From IMG/VR virus record IMGVR_UViG_3300020166_000747: a DNA stretch of 64,000 nucleotides; one strand, 5' to 3'. This stretch comes from a virus. Position numbers and translations under genes: made by a program. A model generated the notes under the pieces. The model had not been told where the DNA came from, did not search any database, and saw only the letters and a list, made by a program, of their open reading frames with translations. Below are positions 3 through 34,901 of the stretch, one piece after another (position 1 is the stretch's first letter; every line of letters starts with the position of its first letter).

Positions 3-575
3 ATGGCAGGTGCCTTCGTTGAACCAATGGAAGCTAACTCGTTATACGTAGCACAGGCATCTATTCAACTTATTAATAGAATCATCAATCGTGCAAAAGA
101 AGAAGATCCAGTAATTACAAATTCACAAATTCATGCATTCAATAAGAATATGTGCAAACTAGAAGATGGCATAGCTGACTTTATTTCCTATCACTTTACA
201 CTTTCTGACCGTGAAGATTCTACATTTTGGAAAAAAGTTAAGCAGTACGGAATCGACCACAATCACAAAGAAGCAAATTGGGAACACTACCGTAGACCCG
301 TTAACTTCTTAGGCAACGGCGTATACCCGGACCAAATGTGGGCAATGCTTGGTGTATATATGGATAAGTTTGATGACAGTGTGGAACTACACACCAAACC
401 TGAACTAATGGAGATGGCAAAGATTAAATTTGATTACATTCATAAATCAAGTAAAGCTATTGGGAACTATGCGCCACACGCATATGATTGGCATCGTAAA
501 TTCTTATATGAAGGTAAATCATATGAAACTGTACTTGCAGAAGCATTAGCTAAAGCGAGTAGGAATTTATATTAA
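3..575 (+). CDS. Flavin-dependent (tryptophan halogenase family) protein, C-terminal part; 5' truncated by window edge
   Basis: GAFVEPMEANSL resembles the family F(I/V)EPLE(S/A) motif; FISYHF...REDSTFWK matches the family C-terminal region. Confidence 0.75.
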   Translation: MAGAFVEPMEANSLYVAQASIQLINRIINRAKEEDPVITNSQIHAFNKNMCKLEDGIADFISYHFTLSDREDSTFWKKVKQYGIDHNHKEANWEHYRRPVNFLGNGVYPDQMWAMLGVYMDKFDDSVELHTKPELMEMAKIKFDYIHKSSKAIGNYAPHAYDWHRKFLYEGKSYETVLAEALAKASRNLY

Positions 576-1171
576 TGATATTAGAAGAATTCGTAGGGGC
601 GAATGGGCTAGAATTTAGGATAGTTGAATGTGGTTCTTCTCATATGTCCGATATCAAAGAGTTTTGCAAAGCATGTAAAGACGATGGTTTCCAAAATAAT
701 TCTAGTTTATCTGCGTTAAAAATTGGTAAATGGGGTAGAGAAGAAAAATGGTGGGCAGTATACTTTAATGATAAGATCATTAGTTTAAGCGGCGCACATT
801 ACTTACCACATCTGCATAAGGATTGCTATGTAATTGCTTATAGACTCGCAACGTTAGATTCATTTAAAGGTATGGCAAATGATATCATGTCTAGTCGTAT
901 GTTAACATGTTTTGGTATGGGTAGGATGTTACCGCATATGGCTGATTGGTGCAAATTACGTGGTGCTAAATATATTGTTATGACTTTTAACTCACCCGAC
1001 AACGGATCAGATCCGAGTGGTACTATGCACAAAGCACACAGAGTTGCTCACATGGTACTACCGAAAGATAACAAATTTACATTACTGTATAGAGATATTC
1101 CACTATATGGTACCAAGCAAGATGTTTGGAAATTAAATTACCGAAACTTTATCACAATGGAAGAACTATGA
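575..1171 (+). CDS. Hypothetical protein, possible GNAT-fold acyltransferase
   Basis: 198-aa ORF coupled to neighbours (TAATG, ATGA); WAVYFNDKIISLSG...YRLATL...WCKLRGAKYIVMT is GNAT-like in pattern only. Confidence 0.4.
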   Translation: MILEEFVGANGLEFRIVECGSSHMSDIKEFCKACKDDGFQNNSSLSALKIGKWGREEKWWAVYFNDKIISLSGAHYLPHLHKDCYVIAYRLATLDSFKGMANDIMSSRMLTCFGMGRMLPHMADWCKLRGAKYIVMTFNSPDNGSDPSGTMHKAHRVAHMVLPKDNKFTLLYRDIPLYGTKQDVWKLNYRNFITMEEL

Positions 1172-2328
1172 CAATTTTTGTAGAAAACGTTTCTATGATT
1201 ACCCCATTTGGGCTTACAAATTCATCATGGGATAATATTTGTAACAATAATGTTGCATATAATACACTTACTAGATTTGATTCAAGTTCTAGTAGATACA
1301 TACGTTCTAAAGTGGCTGGTGAGGTTAACTTTAGTGCAGAAGAACACACGATTTTATCCGAAAATGATAAGGATAGATTACCAGAATATATGCAATGGGC
1401 ATTAGCGTTGACAGAGGAACTGATCGGCAATAGGGAATTGCCATTGGGACGTACTGCTGTATTAGTATCTCCGGGACTATCGATATATATCGAAAGTGTG
1501 GAAGCAAAAAATGCAAATAGAACGAATAGTTTTACTTTCTGTTCAAATATGACTGCACACAATATTAATATTAAATATGGATTTACTGGACCTAGTGCTA
1601 TGACCATGACTGCATGTAGTACCGGAATGTATAGTATTATTCTAGGGTGCATGTTATTAGAAACAGGACAAGCAGATTATGTTATTGCAGGCTCAGTAGA
1701 TAAAAGTGTTTCATTTGATTCCGTAATGCAAATGGGAAAATTAAGGGCATTGTCTACTCGGTACAATGATGCTCCGAAATTAGCAAGTAGACCATGGGAT
1801 ACAAAACGTGATGGACTTGTAATGTCCGAAGGCGGAGCATTGTTCTTATTAACAAATAAAAAAACAGAAAATACAATTTGCGAGATTGCAAGTTATGCAA
1901 TGAACAATGATGCGTATCAAGTTGTTGCGCCGCATCCCGAGGGTACATTAATTGAACGTTGTATGAGCGATGCCGTAATGAAAGCGGGACATGCACCTGA
2001 TTTAATTAACGCACATGCTACAAGTACACCTATGGGAGACTATATTGAAATTGATGCTATCAGACGCATTGGTTTAGGCGATATGCCAATAACTGCAAAC
2101 AAGTCACAGTTGGGTCATTCTATGGGTGCCGCAGGTGCAATAGAATGCGCACTTAGTGTACTTTCATTAAAAAATAATATAATCACACCATCGATAAATA
2201 TTGATAATATAGAAGACGGTTACGACATTAACTATTACAGCGAGTCTAAAACACAAGAAATAAACTCTGTAATGTGTAACAGTTTCGGCTTTGGTGGCAC
2301 AAACGCAAGTATAATCTTTAGAGAATAA
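1168..2328 (+). CDS. fabF: Beta-ketoacyl-ACP synthase II (FabF/FabB family)
   Basis: Intact Cys-His-His triad: TACSTG, NAHATST, KSQLGHSMGAAG; C-terminal NSFGFGGTN; start set at ATGA overlap 1168. Confidence 0.93.
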   Translation: MTIFVENVSMITPFGLTNSSWDNICNNNVAYNTLTRFDSSSSRYIRSKVAGEVNFSAEEHTILSENDKDRLPEYMQWALALTEELIGNRELPLGRTAVLVSPGLSIYIESVEAKNANRTNSFTFCSNMTAHNINIKYGFTGPSAMTMTACSTGMYSIILGCMLLETGQADYVIAGSVDKSVSFDSVMQMGKLRALSTRYNDAPKLASRPWDTKRDGLVMSEGGALFLLTNKKTENTICEIASYAMNNDAYQVVAPHPEGTLIERCMSDAVMKAGHAPDLINAHATSTPMGDYIEIDAIRRIGLGDMPITANKSQLGHSMGAAGAIECALSVLSLKNNIITPSINIDNIEDGYDINYYSESKTQEINSVMCNSFGFGGTNASIIFRE

Positions 2329-2329
2329 A

Positions 2330-2962
2330 ATGCATAACACACAAAAAATACTATTCTTTCATCATCTAGCGATTATTGCCGGTCTGTTATACTATGGTTT
2401 TAATATACAATATGCAGTTCTAATACTAATCGGCTGTATCTTGTGGGCATATATCGTAGGTCATAAGGGGCTACATATATATCTTGCACACCACGATTAC
2501 AAAGATAACATAAAAAGTTATCTATATACTATAGGTGCTTTGGTCACTGGTGTTGGCTCTCCATTAATGTTTGCTGCAACACACCGACAGCACCACAAAT
2601 TTCACGACACCGAAAAAGACCCACATTCTCCAGAACATATTGGCTGGTTAAATGTGTGGTTTATGAACTACAATTCTCAACACATATCTCCTAGACTAGT
2701 TAGAGATTATCTAAAATCAAACTTTCAAAAGTTTATGAATAGACACTGGATGAAATTGACAGTTGCTATGATTGTCGTTCTGGGACTAATAGACCCGAGA
2801 ATTGTTTGCTTCATTATATCACCTTTCAGCGTCTATACTTTCCATGGTTCATCTGCAATCAATGTATTCGGACATCTTAATGGTTCGCCTAGAAACTCAA
2901 AAGAAGTCCTATTTTGGAATCCATGGGACACAAAGCATAAGGAACACCACGAATGGAAATAA
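2330..2962 (+). CDS. Membrane fatty acid desaturase (delta-9-like)
   Basis: Three His boxes HIYLAH, HRQHH, HKEHH; DPHSP motif; hydrophobic segments. Confidence 0.88.
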   Translation: MHNTQKILFFHHLAIIAGLLYYGFNIQYAVLILIGCILWAYIVGHKGLHIYLAHHDYKDNIKSYLYTIGALVTGVGSPLMFAATHRQHHKFHDTEKDPHSPEHIGWLNVWFMNYNSQHISPRLVRDYLKSNFQKFMNRHWMKLTVAMIVVLGLIDPRIVCFIISPFSVYTFHGSSAINVFGHLNGSPRNSKEVLFWNPWDTKHKEHHEWK

Positions 2963-2993
2963 AAAATAACGTAACGGCCTCGAAAAAGGGCGT

Positions 2994-3392
2994 TTGAACT
3001 TTCAAGATTTATTCAGAAACAACCCTAAAATATGGATGCCAATAGCAGAACTGCTAGACAATGTTTTAACGGTAGGAATAAATGATAGATTTATACGTGC
3101 AGAACGTGAATACATTTTTGCATACTTTTCAAAAGAAAACATGTGCGTCTTTTGTTATGAACACCATATAGAATTTGCATATGATTTAGGTTACAATGAT
3201 AGCATTGTTATTGAAAACTTAACTGACAGAGACGCACTAGAAAATATATTTTGGATTAGAAATATTGCATTACTAGTGAACACTGCTATAAAAGAGTACG
3301 ACATAACACAAGTTAATCCCACAGATAAAAAACTAAAAGACACTACTATTAAAGAATATGGATATAACTTCAAAAAAAGCATAGGAAGATAA
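2994..3392 (+). CDS. AhpD/carboxymuconolactone decarboxylase-like protein (start uncertain)
   Basis: EREYIFAYFSKENMCVFCYEHH resembles the ERExI...SxxNxCxxCxxxH AhpD-like motif; only a TTG start in frame near the 5' end. Confidence 0.55.
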   Translation: MNFQDLFRNNPKIWMPIAELLDNVLTVGINDRFIRAEREYIFAYFSKENMCVFCYEHHIEFAYDLGYNDSIVIENLTDRDALENIFWIRNIALLVNTAIKEYDITQVNPTDKKLKDTTIKEYGYNFKKSIGR

Positions 3393-3437
3393 AAACAAAG
3401 CAAACCACGAAGATGCGAAATATTTTGCTAAAAAAAC

Positions 3438-3474
3438 TTGACAATATCCTCACATGTGTTATATTAATAGAGTA
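3438..3474 (+). promoter_or_regulatory. Sigma70-type early promoter (extended family)
   Basis: TTGACA 3438, 16-nt spacer, TG-T-TATATT followed by AATAGAGTA, shared with promoters at 33390 and 34077 (variant at 37869). Confidence 0.8.
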
Positions 3475-31104: not shown

Positions 31105-31129
31105 GTTAAATCCTGCTATAATTTTATTT

Positions 31130-31137
31130 GATAAATA
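31130..31137 (+). promoter_or_regulatory. T4-like late promoter box (GATAAATA)
   Basis: 5 nt upstream of ATG 31143, no SD. Confidence 0.55.
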
Positions 31138-31142
31138 TATTT

Positions 31143-32063
31143 ATGCAAACAAAATCATTAAATTATTATGAGGTGATACCAGAAGAAAACACATTTGTGG
31201 ATATTATGGTAGATATTACGCACAAATGTAATATGACATGTAAGAACTGTTATATTCCAAATCGTGATGTTCCCGATATGGATTTAGAAAAATATAGAGA
31301 TTTTATTTCAAGACTCAAAGGTAGGTGTATGATTAGAATCGTAGGTGCTGAACCGACGATGAATCCACTGTGCGAAGAGTATATTAAAATTGCGTTTGAG
31401 TATGGACATAGATGCATCGTATTAACCAATGGATTAAGATTAGCTCATAAGAATTATGTCGATAAACTACATACTTCTGGATTAAGACATATATATTTGA
31501 GTCTGAATGGTGTAAACAACGATGACTGGTATGTAGAAATAGACGAAATGCGATGTGCTACTAAGAAAATTGCGGCACTGCGTAATATCAGAGATAGAAA
31601 ATTTATCTTAGATATTGGTACTATTATTGTCCCGGATGTAAACGAAGACGCGCCAAGAGCGTTACTAGAGTTATTTGATCAAGAGAATGTAAAGAATGTT
31701 CTAATGCGAATTAAGAATGTAGGCCAATTAGGTCGCTTTCAGACAGAAGCAGATGACAATGTAAAAATGGATCAACTAGTAACCTTATGCTCAGAACAAA
31801 TGGGAGTGAGTGCAGACTATATAAATAGTTTCAGAGATAAAAAATTATACGGTGTGTATGAAGAAAAGAATTCAATATTATTCCCATTACGTGAAGGGAA
31901 TACTATTCTGAATAGAGGAAGATGGGTCAAGATAACAAACTGGGATACTGATAATGAAAGCGGTATTCCAGATCCTAACTCACAAAGACGTGGGCGTGTT
32001 ACAGAAAACTTTACTATCGCTCCACTATATGAACATATAAAAATGAATGAAGGTGGATACTAG
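31143..32063 (+). CDS. Radical SAM protein (MoaA/PqqE-like core, no evident auxiliary cluster)
   Basis: DITHKCNMTCKNCY, VGAEPT, LTNG, YLSLNG. Confidence 0.9.
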   Translation: MQTKSLNYYEVIPEENTFVDIMVDITHKCNMTCKNCYIPNRDVPDMDLEKYRDFISRLKGRCMIRIVGAEPTMNPLCEEYIKIAFEYGHRCIVLTNGLRLAHKNYVDKLHTSGLRHIYLSLNGVNNDDWYVEIDEMRCATKKIAALRNIRDRKFILDIGTIIVPDVNEDAPRALLELFDQENVKNVLMRIKNVGQLGRFQTEADDNVKMDQLVTLCSEQMGVSADYINSFRDKKLYGVYEEKNSILFPLREGNTILNRGRWVKITNWDTDNESGIPDPNSQRRGRVTENFTIAPLYEHIKMNEGGY

Positions 32064-32064
32064 C

Positions 32065-32301
32065 ATGAGTAGAACAAGAAATACACTTAAAGAAATTACA
32101 TTAGATAGAATTGATATTGAACTGACTGATGAAATTATCGATTCAGGCACTTCCTTTAAGGAACTAGGGGTTGATTCGTTAGATACGATTGAAATTATTG
32201 TATCGATAGAAGACCTATTAGATATTGAATTATCAGATGAAAGACTTGATGATATTGATAATATCAAATCATTAGCAGCATATCTAGCAGAATTTGATTA
32301 A
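32065..32301 (+). CDS. acpP: Acyl carrier protein
   Basis: Acidic 78 aa; ELGVDSLDTIEI phosphopantetheine Ser motif. Confidence 0.9.
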   Translation: MSRTRNTLKEITLDRIDIELTDEIIDSGTSFKELGVDSLDTIEIIVSIEDLLDIELSDERLDDIDNIKSLAAYLAEFD

Positions 32302-32322
32302 TAAAATCATTATTGAACAATA

Positions 32323-33351
32323 ATGCACTATGAATTTTATAATCAATTATGGGACTTCGATGATGATGTAGAACTTTATTTTCTACATGAGCGCATCTTA
32401 GAAGACGCATACTTACGAATAATAAAAGCACCAAAGACTGAACAAAGAACTGACAAAGCAACACGTGAATTTATCCGAGGCATGAAGCAGGTCTGGACTA
32501 AACGTGCGGAAACTGGGTCCAATGAATGGGCAAGGCCAGTGGTACATAACTATGATGATTCAATGTTTGAACGGGTAAGTGATGATTACACAATGTGTTG
32601 GAAGAAGACCAACGAAGCACATGACATACTTGTTATACATTTAACTAGTTTTGCTGGGCATGAAGGTAGACTTACTAATTCATTAACTAATGTAAGTTCC
32701 AAAATTATTAATTTAGACACTGATCTATTAATAGTTAATGAAGATCCATTCCGAATGCCCGAAAGTTTATATCCTAGTTATTTTATATTAGGGTGTAGTT
32801 CAAAATGCAATTCACTTAGTGCAACTGCGGATCAAATAAAAACATACATTAAAAAAGAATATAAGAACATTGTTATATACGCTGATTCTAAACATGCAGG
32901 TTCCGGTGTAAGTCTCGCGTATGAGTTGGCAGACTTAAACCCATGTGTACTCGTTACTGGCGGAATTACAACTTATGACTGGGACGCATCGCCGTGGGTG
33001 AAAATGTATTTAAAGTGGTTTAATCGTCCGGATAATCTGAAACATCAATTTCTTTCTATATCTAACATAGCAGTAGCACATTTTATAAAAAGCTATAAAT
33101 TTAAACAAATGGGGATAAGTGAACGACTAACTAATCCTTATAAATTCCTAGATGAATATAATATCAAAGTTGACTTTTACCACGGAAAATATGATTTTGA
33201 GTATATTAAATTTAAAAATCATGTAGAAAACTTAAATCTTAAAAATATTAATATGCATGAAGTTGACTATAAAATATCTGATTCGCAAACACACAACATT
33301 CGTCCTTACGTAGACAGATTTATTCTTTCCGAATATATAAAAAACTTATAA
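32323..33351 (+). CDS. Hypothetical protein, possible alpha/beta-hydrolase fold
   Basis: IVIYADSKHAG resembles a degenerate nucleophile elbow; late HNI His. Confidence 0.4.
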   Translation: MHYEFYNQLWDFDDDVELYFLHERILEDAYLRIIKAPKTEQRTDKATREFIRGMKQVWTKRAETGSNEWARPVVHNYDDSMFERVSDDYTMCWKKTNEAHDILVIHLTSFAGHEGRLTNSLTNVSSKIINLDTDLLIVNEDPFRMPESLYPSYFILGCSSKCNSLSATADQIKTYIKKEYKNIVIYADSKHAGSGVSLAYELADLNPCVLVTGGITTYDWDASPWVKMYLKWFNRPDNLKHQFLSISNIAVAHFIKSYKFKQMGISERLTNPYKFLDEYNIKVDFYHGKYDFEYIKFKNHVENLNLKNINMHEVDYKISDSQTHNIRPYVDRFILSEYIKNL

Positions 33352-34133: not shown

Positions 34134-34901
34134 ATGATTAACGCTGATATTTTCGTTAAGAATACAGGTCTAGAAACAGGTAAGATTTACAATCAACCAA
34201 TTAGCAAAGTAGAACTACTTGCACTTGCTATTGTGGCACAGCGCATTAACGGTGAATACTTAAAGCGAGGTGGGGTGTCCGACTTTGTTACTAAGATCGA
34301 AGACGGCGAAGAAGTACAACGCTATGAACGTACCAAAAACTCTAATCGTTTTGTTATGGAAACAGTCCAGCAGATCGACCCAGATGTATTAACTGACGAG
34401 TTGCTTGCAGAAGCACAAGAGATGTTGACTAATCTTGAAATGGAATATATGTTCAAAGTTCTCGCAGATACAATGAATGACTTTGAAAATTCCATTCATC
34501 AGTTTCTATCAGACGAACCGGATGTATCACTAGATGGTTCTAATTTTGAACCACGTGCGCATATTGGGGTTGTTGCTTACATTCCAGCGTATGTAGAACG
34601 TGAGACAAAACAACGTGACCTTGCTGAACGTTCAATCGGTTCTGAGTATTTAGGAACTAAAGGTGAATCTATTTCCGCGCAGATTGAAATTGTATCTAAG
34701 CGCCAAGCAACTGCTTGGGCAGGTTGGAACGTAAATGCTATCACAACTGATGGCAATCGTGTTTCGTTCTTTACTACAAAAGATGAAATTTCTAATAAGA
34801 CTGGAGTGTTTGGTATATATGCGAAAGTCAAAGATTGTGGTACTGTTTGGCGTGAGGAAAGTATAAAAGAAACTCGCCTTAACTATGTGAAGTTTATTTA
34901 A
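34134..34901 (+). CDS. Hypothetical phage protein, possible C-terminal OB-fold
   Basis: GAGGA RBS; SEYLGTKGE...AKVK...ETRLNYVK beta-rich C terminus. Confidence 0.65.
   Translation: MINADIFVKNTGLETGKIYNQPISKVELLALAIVAQRINGEYLKRGGVSDFVTKIEDGEEVQRYERTKNSNRFVMETVQQIDPDVLTDELLAEAQEMLTNLEMEYMFKVLADTMNDFENSIHQFLSDEPDVSLDGSNFEPRAHIGVVAYIPAYVERETKQRDLAERSIGSEYLGTKGESISAQIEIVSKRQATAWAGWNVNAITTDGNRVSFFTTKDEISNKTGVFGIYAKVKDCGTVWREESIKETRLNYVKFI

Follow-up and report, generated by a model that had tools for sequence, protein, structure and literature searches.

A horizontally exchanged operon of giant marine T4-like phages that joins a ligase, a halogenase-family flavoenzyme, a GNAT-fold protein, and a FabF-like ketosynthase

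Whether a virus can carry its own pathway for building and tailoring an acyl chain is the question raised by the left end of a 64,000-nucleotide stretch of viral DNA (IMG/VR record IMGVR_UViG_3300020166_000747), which is referred to here as the window. A sequence-only reading of the window had described five closely packed genes at positions 3–3392, encoding a halogenase, a GNAT, a FabF, a desaturase, and an AhpD-like protein, and had interpreted them as a viral mini fatty-acid pathway that might use the acyl carrier protein (ACP) encoded at position 32065. All five open reading frames (ORFs) were found where they had been placed, on the + strand and abutting or overlapping: at the first and second junctions the genes overlap by 1 and 4 nt, and at the third and fourth they are separated by 1 and 31 nt. 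The upstream part was recovered by an exact-protein look-up of the GNAT-like gene product, ORF198, which located the same phage in several other metagenome and sequencing-run assemblies, the longest contig (L001) being 141 kb. Upstream of the window, L001 contains the gene for an AAA5 (MoxR/CobS-like) ATPase, the gene for a 455-amino-acid (aa) AMP-binding ligase, and a further 374 residues of the halogenase; the ligase gene overlaps the halogenase gene by 4 nt. The full operon spans L001 6943–12818 and comprises six genes in the order ligase–halogenase–ORF198–ketosynthase (KS)–desaturase–ORF132, and the window holds the right-hand five-sixths of it. Of the five-gene operon described earlier, the halogenase–GNAT–KS core stands, whereas the ligase and the 374 upstream halogenase residues had been missed and the desaturase and AhpD-like genes are lineage-variable additions. 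This cassette is an accessory operon of T4-like marine jumbo phages that is self-contained and has been exchanged horizontally. The reading that we favor, to which we give about even chances, is that its products would load an acyl chain, extend it once, halogenate or otherwise tailor it, and offload it, a chemistry deduced from the gene order, co-inheritance, and catalytic residues that were observed.

The flanks of the cassette matched phage protein families strongly (phrog_1314, 2e-104; phrog_1297, 1e-96), and the relatives retrieved were viral contigs of IMG/VR. Among those that bear the cassette, one genome is complete; it measures 342,607 bp, has terminal repeats, and encodes a capsid protein of the T4 gp23 type. 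The source of the window is an uncultured giant (jumbo) marine T4-like phage, and a blastn search found no match to the cassette among cultured phages.

The cassette sits between two core phage genes, those for the AAA5 ATPase and a DUF2201 metallopeptidase–VWA protein; the latter is followed by an HNH gene and the genes for dihydrofolate reductase (DHFR) and ThyA. In a blastn comparison with a cassette-less relative, homology stopped exactly at the AAA5 stop codon (L001 6872) and resumed at L001 12862, which corresponds to window position 3436, and the insert is therefore 5.99 kb long. At its left end, the 12-bp-stem terminator of the AAA5 gene overlaps a near-consensus promoter (TTGACT-17-TATAAT); the next promoter after it is the TTGACA-16-TATATT site before the VWA gene, which that gene keeps at the right end of the insert. 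Sigma-70-like sites overall were not above chance (39 found vs. 41 expected), and the argument relies only on these two 11-of-12 edge sites. Upstream of the cassette, the T4 late-promoter word TATAAATA was not found, the one match in 20.6 kb being distant and on the other strand. The cassette is probably under a host-type, sigma-70-like promoter and, because the promoter is of this type, is probably expressed early.

We then determined how the cassette is distributed. A scan of IMG/VR with the AAA5 protein gave 80 loci, and the genes for the ligase, halogenase, ORF198, and KS were all present in 24 of the 24 full-cassette loci that had both flanks; approximately ten further cassette loci were cut by a contig end. 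The site was empty in 17 close relatives (AAA5 78–94% identical), in which the AAA5–VWA gap was ∼100–200 bp (14 of 17) or 0.8–1.4 kb (3 of 17), and the cassette was also absent from 20 distant T4-like phages (AAA5 55–59% identical). Across KS identities of 56–99%, the four core genes keep one order and overlapping stop and start codons. The co-occurrence on which the sequence-only reading depended is thus borne out, the halogenase, GNAT, and KS standing together in every complete cassette. The halogenase and the KS were never seen apart: reduced variants lack both and keep ligase-like and GNAT-like genes. Around the core, there are 0, 1, or 2 desaturases per cassette, at shifting positions, and the AhpD-like gene is optional (architectures A–D in Table 1). 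In the reduced cassette, the ligase-like protein (341 aa) has a degenerate A3 motif (TNGSTLESKP) and no C-terminal subdomain, and the other genes encode a 186-aa ORF198-like GNAT, a 93-aa ORF, and a mini AMP-binding protein of 227 aa in which A3 and A8 are intact. In the nearest cassette-bearing relative, the DNA is ∼85% identical through the AAA5, ligase, and nearly the whole halogenase gene; the ORF198–KS–desaturase block is then replaced (KS, 69% nucleotide identity; ORF198, 45% protein identity; desaturase moved), and homology returns at ORF132 and the VWA gene. Because the block was replaced between such similar flanks, we conclude that the interior of the cassette has been exchanged between lineages. 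The AAA5–VWA site as a whole occurs in empty, full, reduced, and mosaic states, and also holds passengers of the p268 family and an HD-domain gene.

The KS carries both ketoacyl-synt domains (N and C; PF00109 and PF02801), and C150, H283, and H317, together with K312 and the GFGG motif (F373–G377), were invariant in 14 diverse homologues. Although its nearest solved structures are those of FabF, it scored 277 bits against the FabF equivalog model TIGR03150 (cut-off, 493.75), and its homologues comprised ∼100 cluster representatives at 56–99% identity, followed by a drop to ≤ 37% (FabF-like proteins of 412–433 aa). Because of this score and these identities, we classify the predicted protein as FabF-like and not as a FabF orthologue. 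As judged from the sequences available, its clade is almost confined to viral or metagenome sequence: no match above 36% identity was found in the GTDB species genomes, and tblastn searches of cultured phages gave only matches of ≤ 36%, either to small unannotated records or to ordinary fabB/fabF.

The upstream ligase matched PF00501 (1.5e-41) and PF13193 (9e-6). In alignment with FadD13, the A3 motif (TSGTTGAPK), the A8 motif (GYWCTGD), and the A10 Lys (GKI) are kept, and the nearest structures are those of FadD13, feruloyl-CoA synthetase, 4-coumarate ligase (4CL), and MenE. Its domains and motifs are those of an ANL adenylate-forming ligase, and these nearest enzymes activate carboxylic acids, not amino acids. 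The full-length halogenase (564 aa; L001 8307–10001) matched the Pfam family Trp_halogenase (PF04820) with an E-value of 3.5e-94 over residues 7–464, and its fragment in the window did so at 4.7e-13; phmmer placed it at ∼30% identity to Thal, PrnA, RebH, and VirX1. The GxGxxG motif, which lies upstream of the window, reads GGGAAG or GGGVGG in 10 of 10 phage copies. The segment YKLGNKF aligns with YK(M/V)A(V/I)KF of Thal, which we take to hold the catalytic lysine (K79 in PrnA/RebH), and EPME aligns with EPLE, its glutamate falling at the position of the catalytic E346; both segments are invariant in the 10 copies.

ORF198 has no family in Pfam, PHROGs, or NCBIfam, and its assignment rests on predicted structure. 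The AlphaFold2 (AF2) model (pLDDT 87.6) had 384 Foldseek matches at E ≤ 0.001 (top E about 1e-6), those listed all being GNATs, and VIA aligned it with GNATs at Z 10–12 over 140–160 residues, FeeM among them (Z 10.7). The best single match was the GNAT domain of S. lividans PAT (Foldseek rank 1; VIA Z 12.1), which was solved in complex with the C-terminal domain of acetyl-CoA synthetase. LuxI-type synthases, CurA-type GNATs, and OlsB were absent among the structural matches listed, which does not amount to their exclusion. The model therefore supports a GNAT fold. Within the wider family, 5 of 29 members matched Acetyltransf_1 (best 2.1e-5), and the conserved residues (N41, N42, R90, and Q182) are the family's own. 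A profile search of 1.8 billion representatives recovered 151 proteins at E ≤ 0.001, the nearest Atlas clusters were 100% viral, and a pattern scan of the GTDB genomes found no relative; to judge from these searches, the family is, like the KS clade, almost confined to viral or metagenome sequence. Because the GTDB scans gave no close relative, no cellular donor can be named for either protein. One distant family member, on the bacterial-looking contig L139, is fused to an AMP-binding domain and directly followed by a KS, and this fusion ties the ligase, GNAT, and KS together independently of the window phage. The region in question (L139 903–8588) has a GC content of 36% and encodes secreted proteins; the second catalytic His of its KS is apparently replaced, and a T4_deiodinase-family gene lies 3.7 kb beyond the KS.

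The two optional genes encode a desaturase-like and a thiol-type protein. For the former, the His boxes HIYLAH, HRQHH, and HKEHH and four hydrophobic stretches were read from the sequence; the boxes are of the SCD/DesC type and are the same in the cassette desaturases of the relative L018, a 338-kb metagenome scaffold. The match to PF00487 was below the gathering threshold (22.8 bits vs. 29.7; 8.7e-5), but the protein is 32% identical (E 4e-18) to DesB of L018, which carries PF00487, and we file it as desaturase-like. Its only match in a cultured phage was a 216-aa FA_desaturase-domain protein of Pelagibacter phage Mosig (29% identity). In Mosig (MT647606, 53768–66319), this gene lies by tail-fibre genes in an island of radical SAM, carbamoyltransferase, aminotransferase, FMN-reductase, and peroxiredoxin genes, which parallels the pairing of a desaturase with a thiol protein in the window cassette. 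In ORF132, the CxxCxxxH motif (C51, C54, and H58) is invariant, and the homologues start with MTFQDLF at the same position. There was no match to Pfam CMD (PF02627), and the match to TIGR04030 (1e-3) was far below the cut-off. The AF2 model (pLDDT 81.6) had AhpD/CMD-type folds as all of its best 20 VIA matches (Z 6.6–9.6, rmsd 2.3–4.3, 92–114 residues), including bacterial AhpD/CMD proteins, sestrin-type entries, and the debrominase Bmp8 (Z 9.1); Atlas CMD clusters scored 0.90–0.91, and Foldseek E-values were only 0.4–3. The predicted structure and the motif together point to an AhpD/CMD fold. The intact FabF triad, the three His boxes, the GNAT identity of the ORF at position 575, and the AhpD identity of ORF132 were thus all correctly recognized in the sequence-only reading.

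The ACP encoded 29 kb away, proposed earlier as a possible partner of the operon, is the candidate carrier. Its sequence carries GVDSLD within a PP-binding domain. All five cassette-bearing records compared contained ACP homologues, and none of the five cassette-less ones did; in the latter, the syntenic site was covered and the DUF6071 neighbor was present in all five, but the ACP and its neighbors were absent. Two cassette-bearing records, one of them the complete 342.6-kb relative, encode an AcpS-type phosphopantetheinyl transferase (PPTase), which was not found in the cassette-less fragments. The ACP was not found in the reduced-cassette records, which are 3–18% complete fragments. FabD, a ketoreductase (KR), and a dehydratase (DH; FabA/Z) were not found in the complete cassette-bearing genome, and for this reason the term “mini fatty-acid pathway” overstates the case: the KS, ligase, and ACP are present, and a single extension is all that they would allow. 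In the window, a 311-aa radical SAM gene, the ACP gene, and a gene for a 342-aa protein (31128–33351) form a block that is kept in relatives (L221 and L222). Two more ACPs are encoded in the complete relative: one stands alone at the syntenic site (L226), and the other is distant.

In the reading that we favor, the ligase would adenylate a carboxylic acid, fatty or aryl, and load it as a thioester, most likely on the phage ACP, which the phage AcpS-type PPTase would have made holo. The KS would then condense the acyl chain once with host malonyl-ACP to give a beta-ketoacyl-S-ACP, and because no KR, DH, or FabD is encoded, the phage's own chemistry would stop after this one Claisen extension. 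The halogenase would place a halogen where electron density is high; this could be on the alpha-carbon of the beta-keto thioester, which is enolisable, or on an aromatic starter. Some lineages would introduce unsaturation with one or two desaturases, and in some, the CxxC AhpD-fold protein would perform thiol redox or dehalogenation trimming. Finally, the GNAT-fold protein would hand the chain over to an acceptor with an amine or hydroxyl group and thereby release it. There is chemical precedent, in that a few flavin-dependent halogenases (FDHs) act on enolisable aliphatic thioesters (CmlS) and the viral FDH VirX1 is active (PMC8407142). This precedent, the unity of the operon, its co-inheritance, the intact catalytic residues, and the co-occurrence of the ACP speak for the proposed sequence of steps.

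Several observations weigh against it. The halogenase is of the free-substrate Trp type and not the carrier-protein type. Although its GxGxxG motif, catalytic Lys, and Glu are present, as the sequence-only reading would lead one to expect, WxWxIP is degenerate, reading GW-x-F-[IV]-I-[P/S/T] in 10 of 10 copies, and the Fx.Px.Sx.G tunnel motif appears as [F/M]-x-E-P-M-E-[A/G]-N-x, with Ser and Gly replaced. Active FDHs without WxWxIP do exist (PMC8407142), so we class this Trp_halogenase-family flavoenzyme as a probable, not a certain, halogenase; it may lack halogenating activity, or its substrates may be free indole-like compounds. A flavin reductase of the PF01613 type was not found in the complete 342.6-kb relative. 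In ORF198, the CFGMGR stretch at the position of GNAT motif A (Q/R-x-x-G-x-G/A) is not conserved in relatives, and because the structural matches form a flat list of GNATs and motif A is not conserved, neither the donor nor the acceptor can be read from the protein. The distant ACP gene lies in a radical-SAM/glycan island beside its own radical SAM gene, and the ACP may serve that island instead of the cassette. The ACP and PPTase correlations may also rest on one or two evolutionary events, because the cassette-less phages look like one clade. The product, starter acid, halogenation site, acceptor, and activity are all chemistry deduced from sequence.

Some of the same evidence could be read as remodelling of host membrane lipids, with the ligase recycling fatty acids as an acyl-ACP synthetase, the KS supplementing FabF, the desaturase acting on host lipids, and the GNAT, like OlsB or an N-acyl-amino-acid synthase, producing aminolipids. 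The structural proximity of the KS to FabF and of the ligase to the fatty-acyl-CoA synthetase FadD13 would suit this, as would the presence of FeeM, an N-acyl amino acid synthase, among the tied matches of ORF198, a promoter fit for early host takeover, and the documented action of phage Delta9 desaturases on host lipids (PMC5776448). However, lipid remodelling leaves the halogenase without a function, although no full cassette lacks this enzyme and it disappears jointly with the KS; the KS clade is too deeply separated from FabF-like proteins to be a captured host fabF, a desaturase is missing from the commonest architecture, and the phage brings its own ACP and PPTase. We therefore consider it unlikely. 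It is also quite unlikely that there is no pathway at all and that unrelated auxiliary genes have gathered in a recombination hot spot, with the halogenase, like VirX1, working by itself on free aromatic or indole-like compounds. Its range of states and its unrelated passengers clearly mark the site as a hot spot, and Trp-halogenase genes do occur singly in cyanophages and pelagiphages, but chance assembly would not explain why four genes keep their order and overlapping codons over such a range of KS divergence, why the halogenase and KS are gained and lost jointly, or why a ligase::GNAT fusion stands beside a KS in an unrelated contig.

That fusion also bears on whether the GNAT is instead a regulator that, like Pat or AcuA, acylates the A10 lysine of the adjacent ligase and switches it off. 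For such a role speak PAT with its acetyl-CoA synthetase domain as the best single structural match, the A10 Lys retained in the ligase, and the constant presence of a ligase alongside the GNAT. Against it, a covalent link fits the hand-over of a substrate better, dozens of unrelated GNATs have Z values within ∼1 of one another, and the reduced variant retains its GNAT even though its first ligase-like protein has a degenerate A3 and no C-terminal subdomain; a regulatory role therefore seems very improbable. Alternatively, the ACP-built acyl chain could be passed to a sugar polymer made by the neighboring radical-SAM/glycosyltransferase island, giving an acylated and possibly halogenated decoration of virion glycans. 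The ACP gene stands inside that island, beside a radical SAM gene, the island begins 5 kb from the cassette, and Mosig keeps a similar short desaturase in a radical-SAM/carbamoyltransferase island by its tail-fibre genes. Nevertheless, the VWA, HNH, DHFR, and ThyA genes separate the cassette from the island, the cassette promoter is of the sigma-70 type and not the TATAAATA late type, and cassette-less relatives keep the island genes for DUF6071 and the carbamoyltransferase, so we regard glycan decoration as rather improbable. If the operon does load, extend, tailor, and offload an acyl chain, a tentative further step is that these phages make a halogenated beta-ketoacyl or N-acyl metabolite of their own by means of the KS, ligase, halogenase, GNAT, and phage ACP and PPTase. 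Such a product might be a diffusible signal, an antibiotic-like amide, or an acyl-halogen decoration of glycans linked to the neighboring radical-SAM island; we hold this to be possible but clearly short of even chances.

Among known systems, JamA/JamB/JamC (with JamD) and TtuABC share with the cassette an acyl-ACP synthetase-type ligase, a membrane desaturase, an ACP, and a flavin halogenase. An alkyne cassette of the JamABC/TtuABC type would have its ligase, desaturase/acetylenase, and ACP adjacent and always together, whereas in the phages the desaturase is optional, the ACP is distant, and the core contains a KS and a GNAT; the comparison is one of gene content. Jamaicamide-like alkyne formation, suggested earlier as a model, is ruled out as the general function, the commonest architecture having no desaturase. 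The Bmp bromopyrrole pathway (Bmp1–8) likewise has an adenylating enzyme, a carrier protein, a flavin halogenase, and an AhpD/CMD-fold CxxC enzyme. However, Bmp2 is a carrier-protein-dependent halogenase, unlike the free-substrate Trp type, and only distant ∼410-aa halogenases (5bul and 5bva) matched the window halogenase, at ∼1e-7; ORF132 is as close to ordinary AhpD proteins as to Bmp8 and is optional in the cassette, and the Bmp pathway is not known to include a KS. FeeM, LuxI-type synthases, and the CurA loading GNAT have the GNAT fold, as ORF198 is predicted to have, and ORF198 would, like them, take an ACP- or CoA-bound acyl chain, but it has no sequence match to Autoind_synth or such families and has conserved residues of its own. 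VirX1 and the “tryptophan halogenases” of T4-like cyanophages and pelagiphages are, like the window protein, viral Trp_halogenase-family FDHs with a K79-type lysine (29–30% identity to the copies in HTVC008M, P-TIM40, and S-B64; VirX1, 6QGM, 3.9e-54). In contrast to the VirX1-type genes, the window halogenase is tied to ligase, GNAT, and KS genes in a single operon, and its WxWxIP and FxxPxxSxG motifs are degenerate; the gene beside several of the cyanophage and pelagiphage halogenases is annotated as a 2-oxoglutarate (2OG)-Fe(II)/phytanoyl-CoA-type oxygenase, not a KS. CmlK/CmlS of chloramphenicol biosynthesis combine an AMP-ligase with a flavin halogenase proposed to act on an enolisable beta-keto/malonyl thioester, followed by N-acylation (PMC8407142). 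CmlS was not among the phmmer matches of the halogenase at 1e-5, which is not an exclusion, and the in vitro activity of CmlS is itself putative; no KS or GNAT-fold partner of CmlK/CmlS came up in the literature searched. The cyanophage Delta9 desaturases vFAD-I and vFAD-II are phage membrane desaturases with three DesC/SCD-type His boxes (PMC5776448), but the window protein is much shorter (210 aa), lies inside an operon with a KS and a halogenase, and has a predicted function. Viral halogenases (VirX1) and phage desaturases (vFADs; PMC5776448) are thus known singly, and their combination in an operon appears to be undescribed; no prior description of this gene combination in phages was found in the literature searched, including surveys of marine jumbo phages.

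This cassette is a multi-enzyme operon of the thiotemplate type, accompanied by an ACP and a PPTase of its own. Abundant uncultured jumbo phages of the ocean both conserve and reshuffle it, and the genomes searched contain no close cellular relative of its KS clade or its GNAT family. Phage auxiliary genes are mostly single enzymes that boost host metabolism. If our reading is correct, the cassette would be a genuine virus-borne biosynthetic gene cluster that recombines as a unit between phage lineages, and a halogenated acyl product would be rare small-molecule chemistry for a virus. Viruses would then be a marine source of organohalogen and lipid-like natural products, the Trp-halogenase-family genes of marine phages would gain a testable biological context, and the 386-aa KS, the 455-aa ligase, and the new GNAT family would offer compact parts for biocatalysis.

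Table 1. Features of the cassette and the phage ACP gene (window coordinates unless another contig is named), and cassette architectures among relatives
Feature	Position	Strand	Remarks
Probable halogenase, C-terminal piece	3..575	+	Last 190 of 564 residues; open at the left edge of the window
ORF198, divergent GNAT-fold acyltransferase-like protein, 198 aa	575..1171	+	Predicted structure
FabF-like elongating KS, 386 aa	1168..2328	+	ATG start, as in homologues; PF00109 and PF02801
Membrane di-iron desaturase-like protein, 210 aa	2330..2962	+	Optional in cassette; His boxes HxxxxH, HxxHH, HxxHH
ORF132, predicted AhpD/CMD fold, 132 aa	2994..3392	+	Optional in cassette; TTG start; C51-x-x-C54-x-x-x-H58
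Right edge of insert and sigma-70-like promoter (TTGACA-16-TATATT) of core VWA gene	3436..3465	+	blastn, promoter scan
Phage ACP, candidate carrier for the cassette	32065..32301	+	DSL serine motif; PF00550, 1.6e-11
Architecture A (commonest)			Ligase-Hal-ORF198-KS, then unrelated 266–270-aa passenger gene; no desaturase
Architecture B			Ligase-Hal-DesA-(56 aa)-ORF198-DesB-KS
Architecture C			Ligase-Hal-Des-ORF198-KS, with or without ORF132
Architecture D (window)			Ligase-Hal-ORF198-KS-Des-ORF132
Reduced cassette	L087 10266–12780		Also L080, L099, L104, and L118; no halogenase, no KS

Several further features were observed around the cassette. The passenger gene of architecture A belongs to a 255–270-aa family with no Pfam match, found directly after the KS (L012 11200–12006; L014 11208–12020); the family has a paralogue at window 34134–34901, 32 kb away, and behaves as a mobile passenger. 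Between 8 and 57 kb of the window, many radical SAM genes and a carbamoyltransferase were recognized with Pfam and PHROGs. Just upstream of the AAA5 gene, a repeat of ∼55 nt occurs in three copies (L001 5227–5283, 5427–5480, and 5676–5735), each with a near-consensus promoter (TTGACA-N16/17-TATAGT or TATATT) before small genes. Genes near the cassette in relatives include homologues of ribosomal protein L33 (L020 18861–19016), S-adenosylmethionine (SAM) synthetase (L020 1–673), and an HtrA-like trypsin-PDZ protease (L018 1389–2657). A homologue of the SbmA/BacA-like inner-membrane peptide transporters (PF05992, 8.2e-77) is encoded at L001 3399–4433, ∼6 kb upstream of the start of the window, and a 36%-identical copy occupies the same place in L018.

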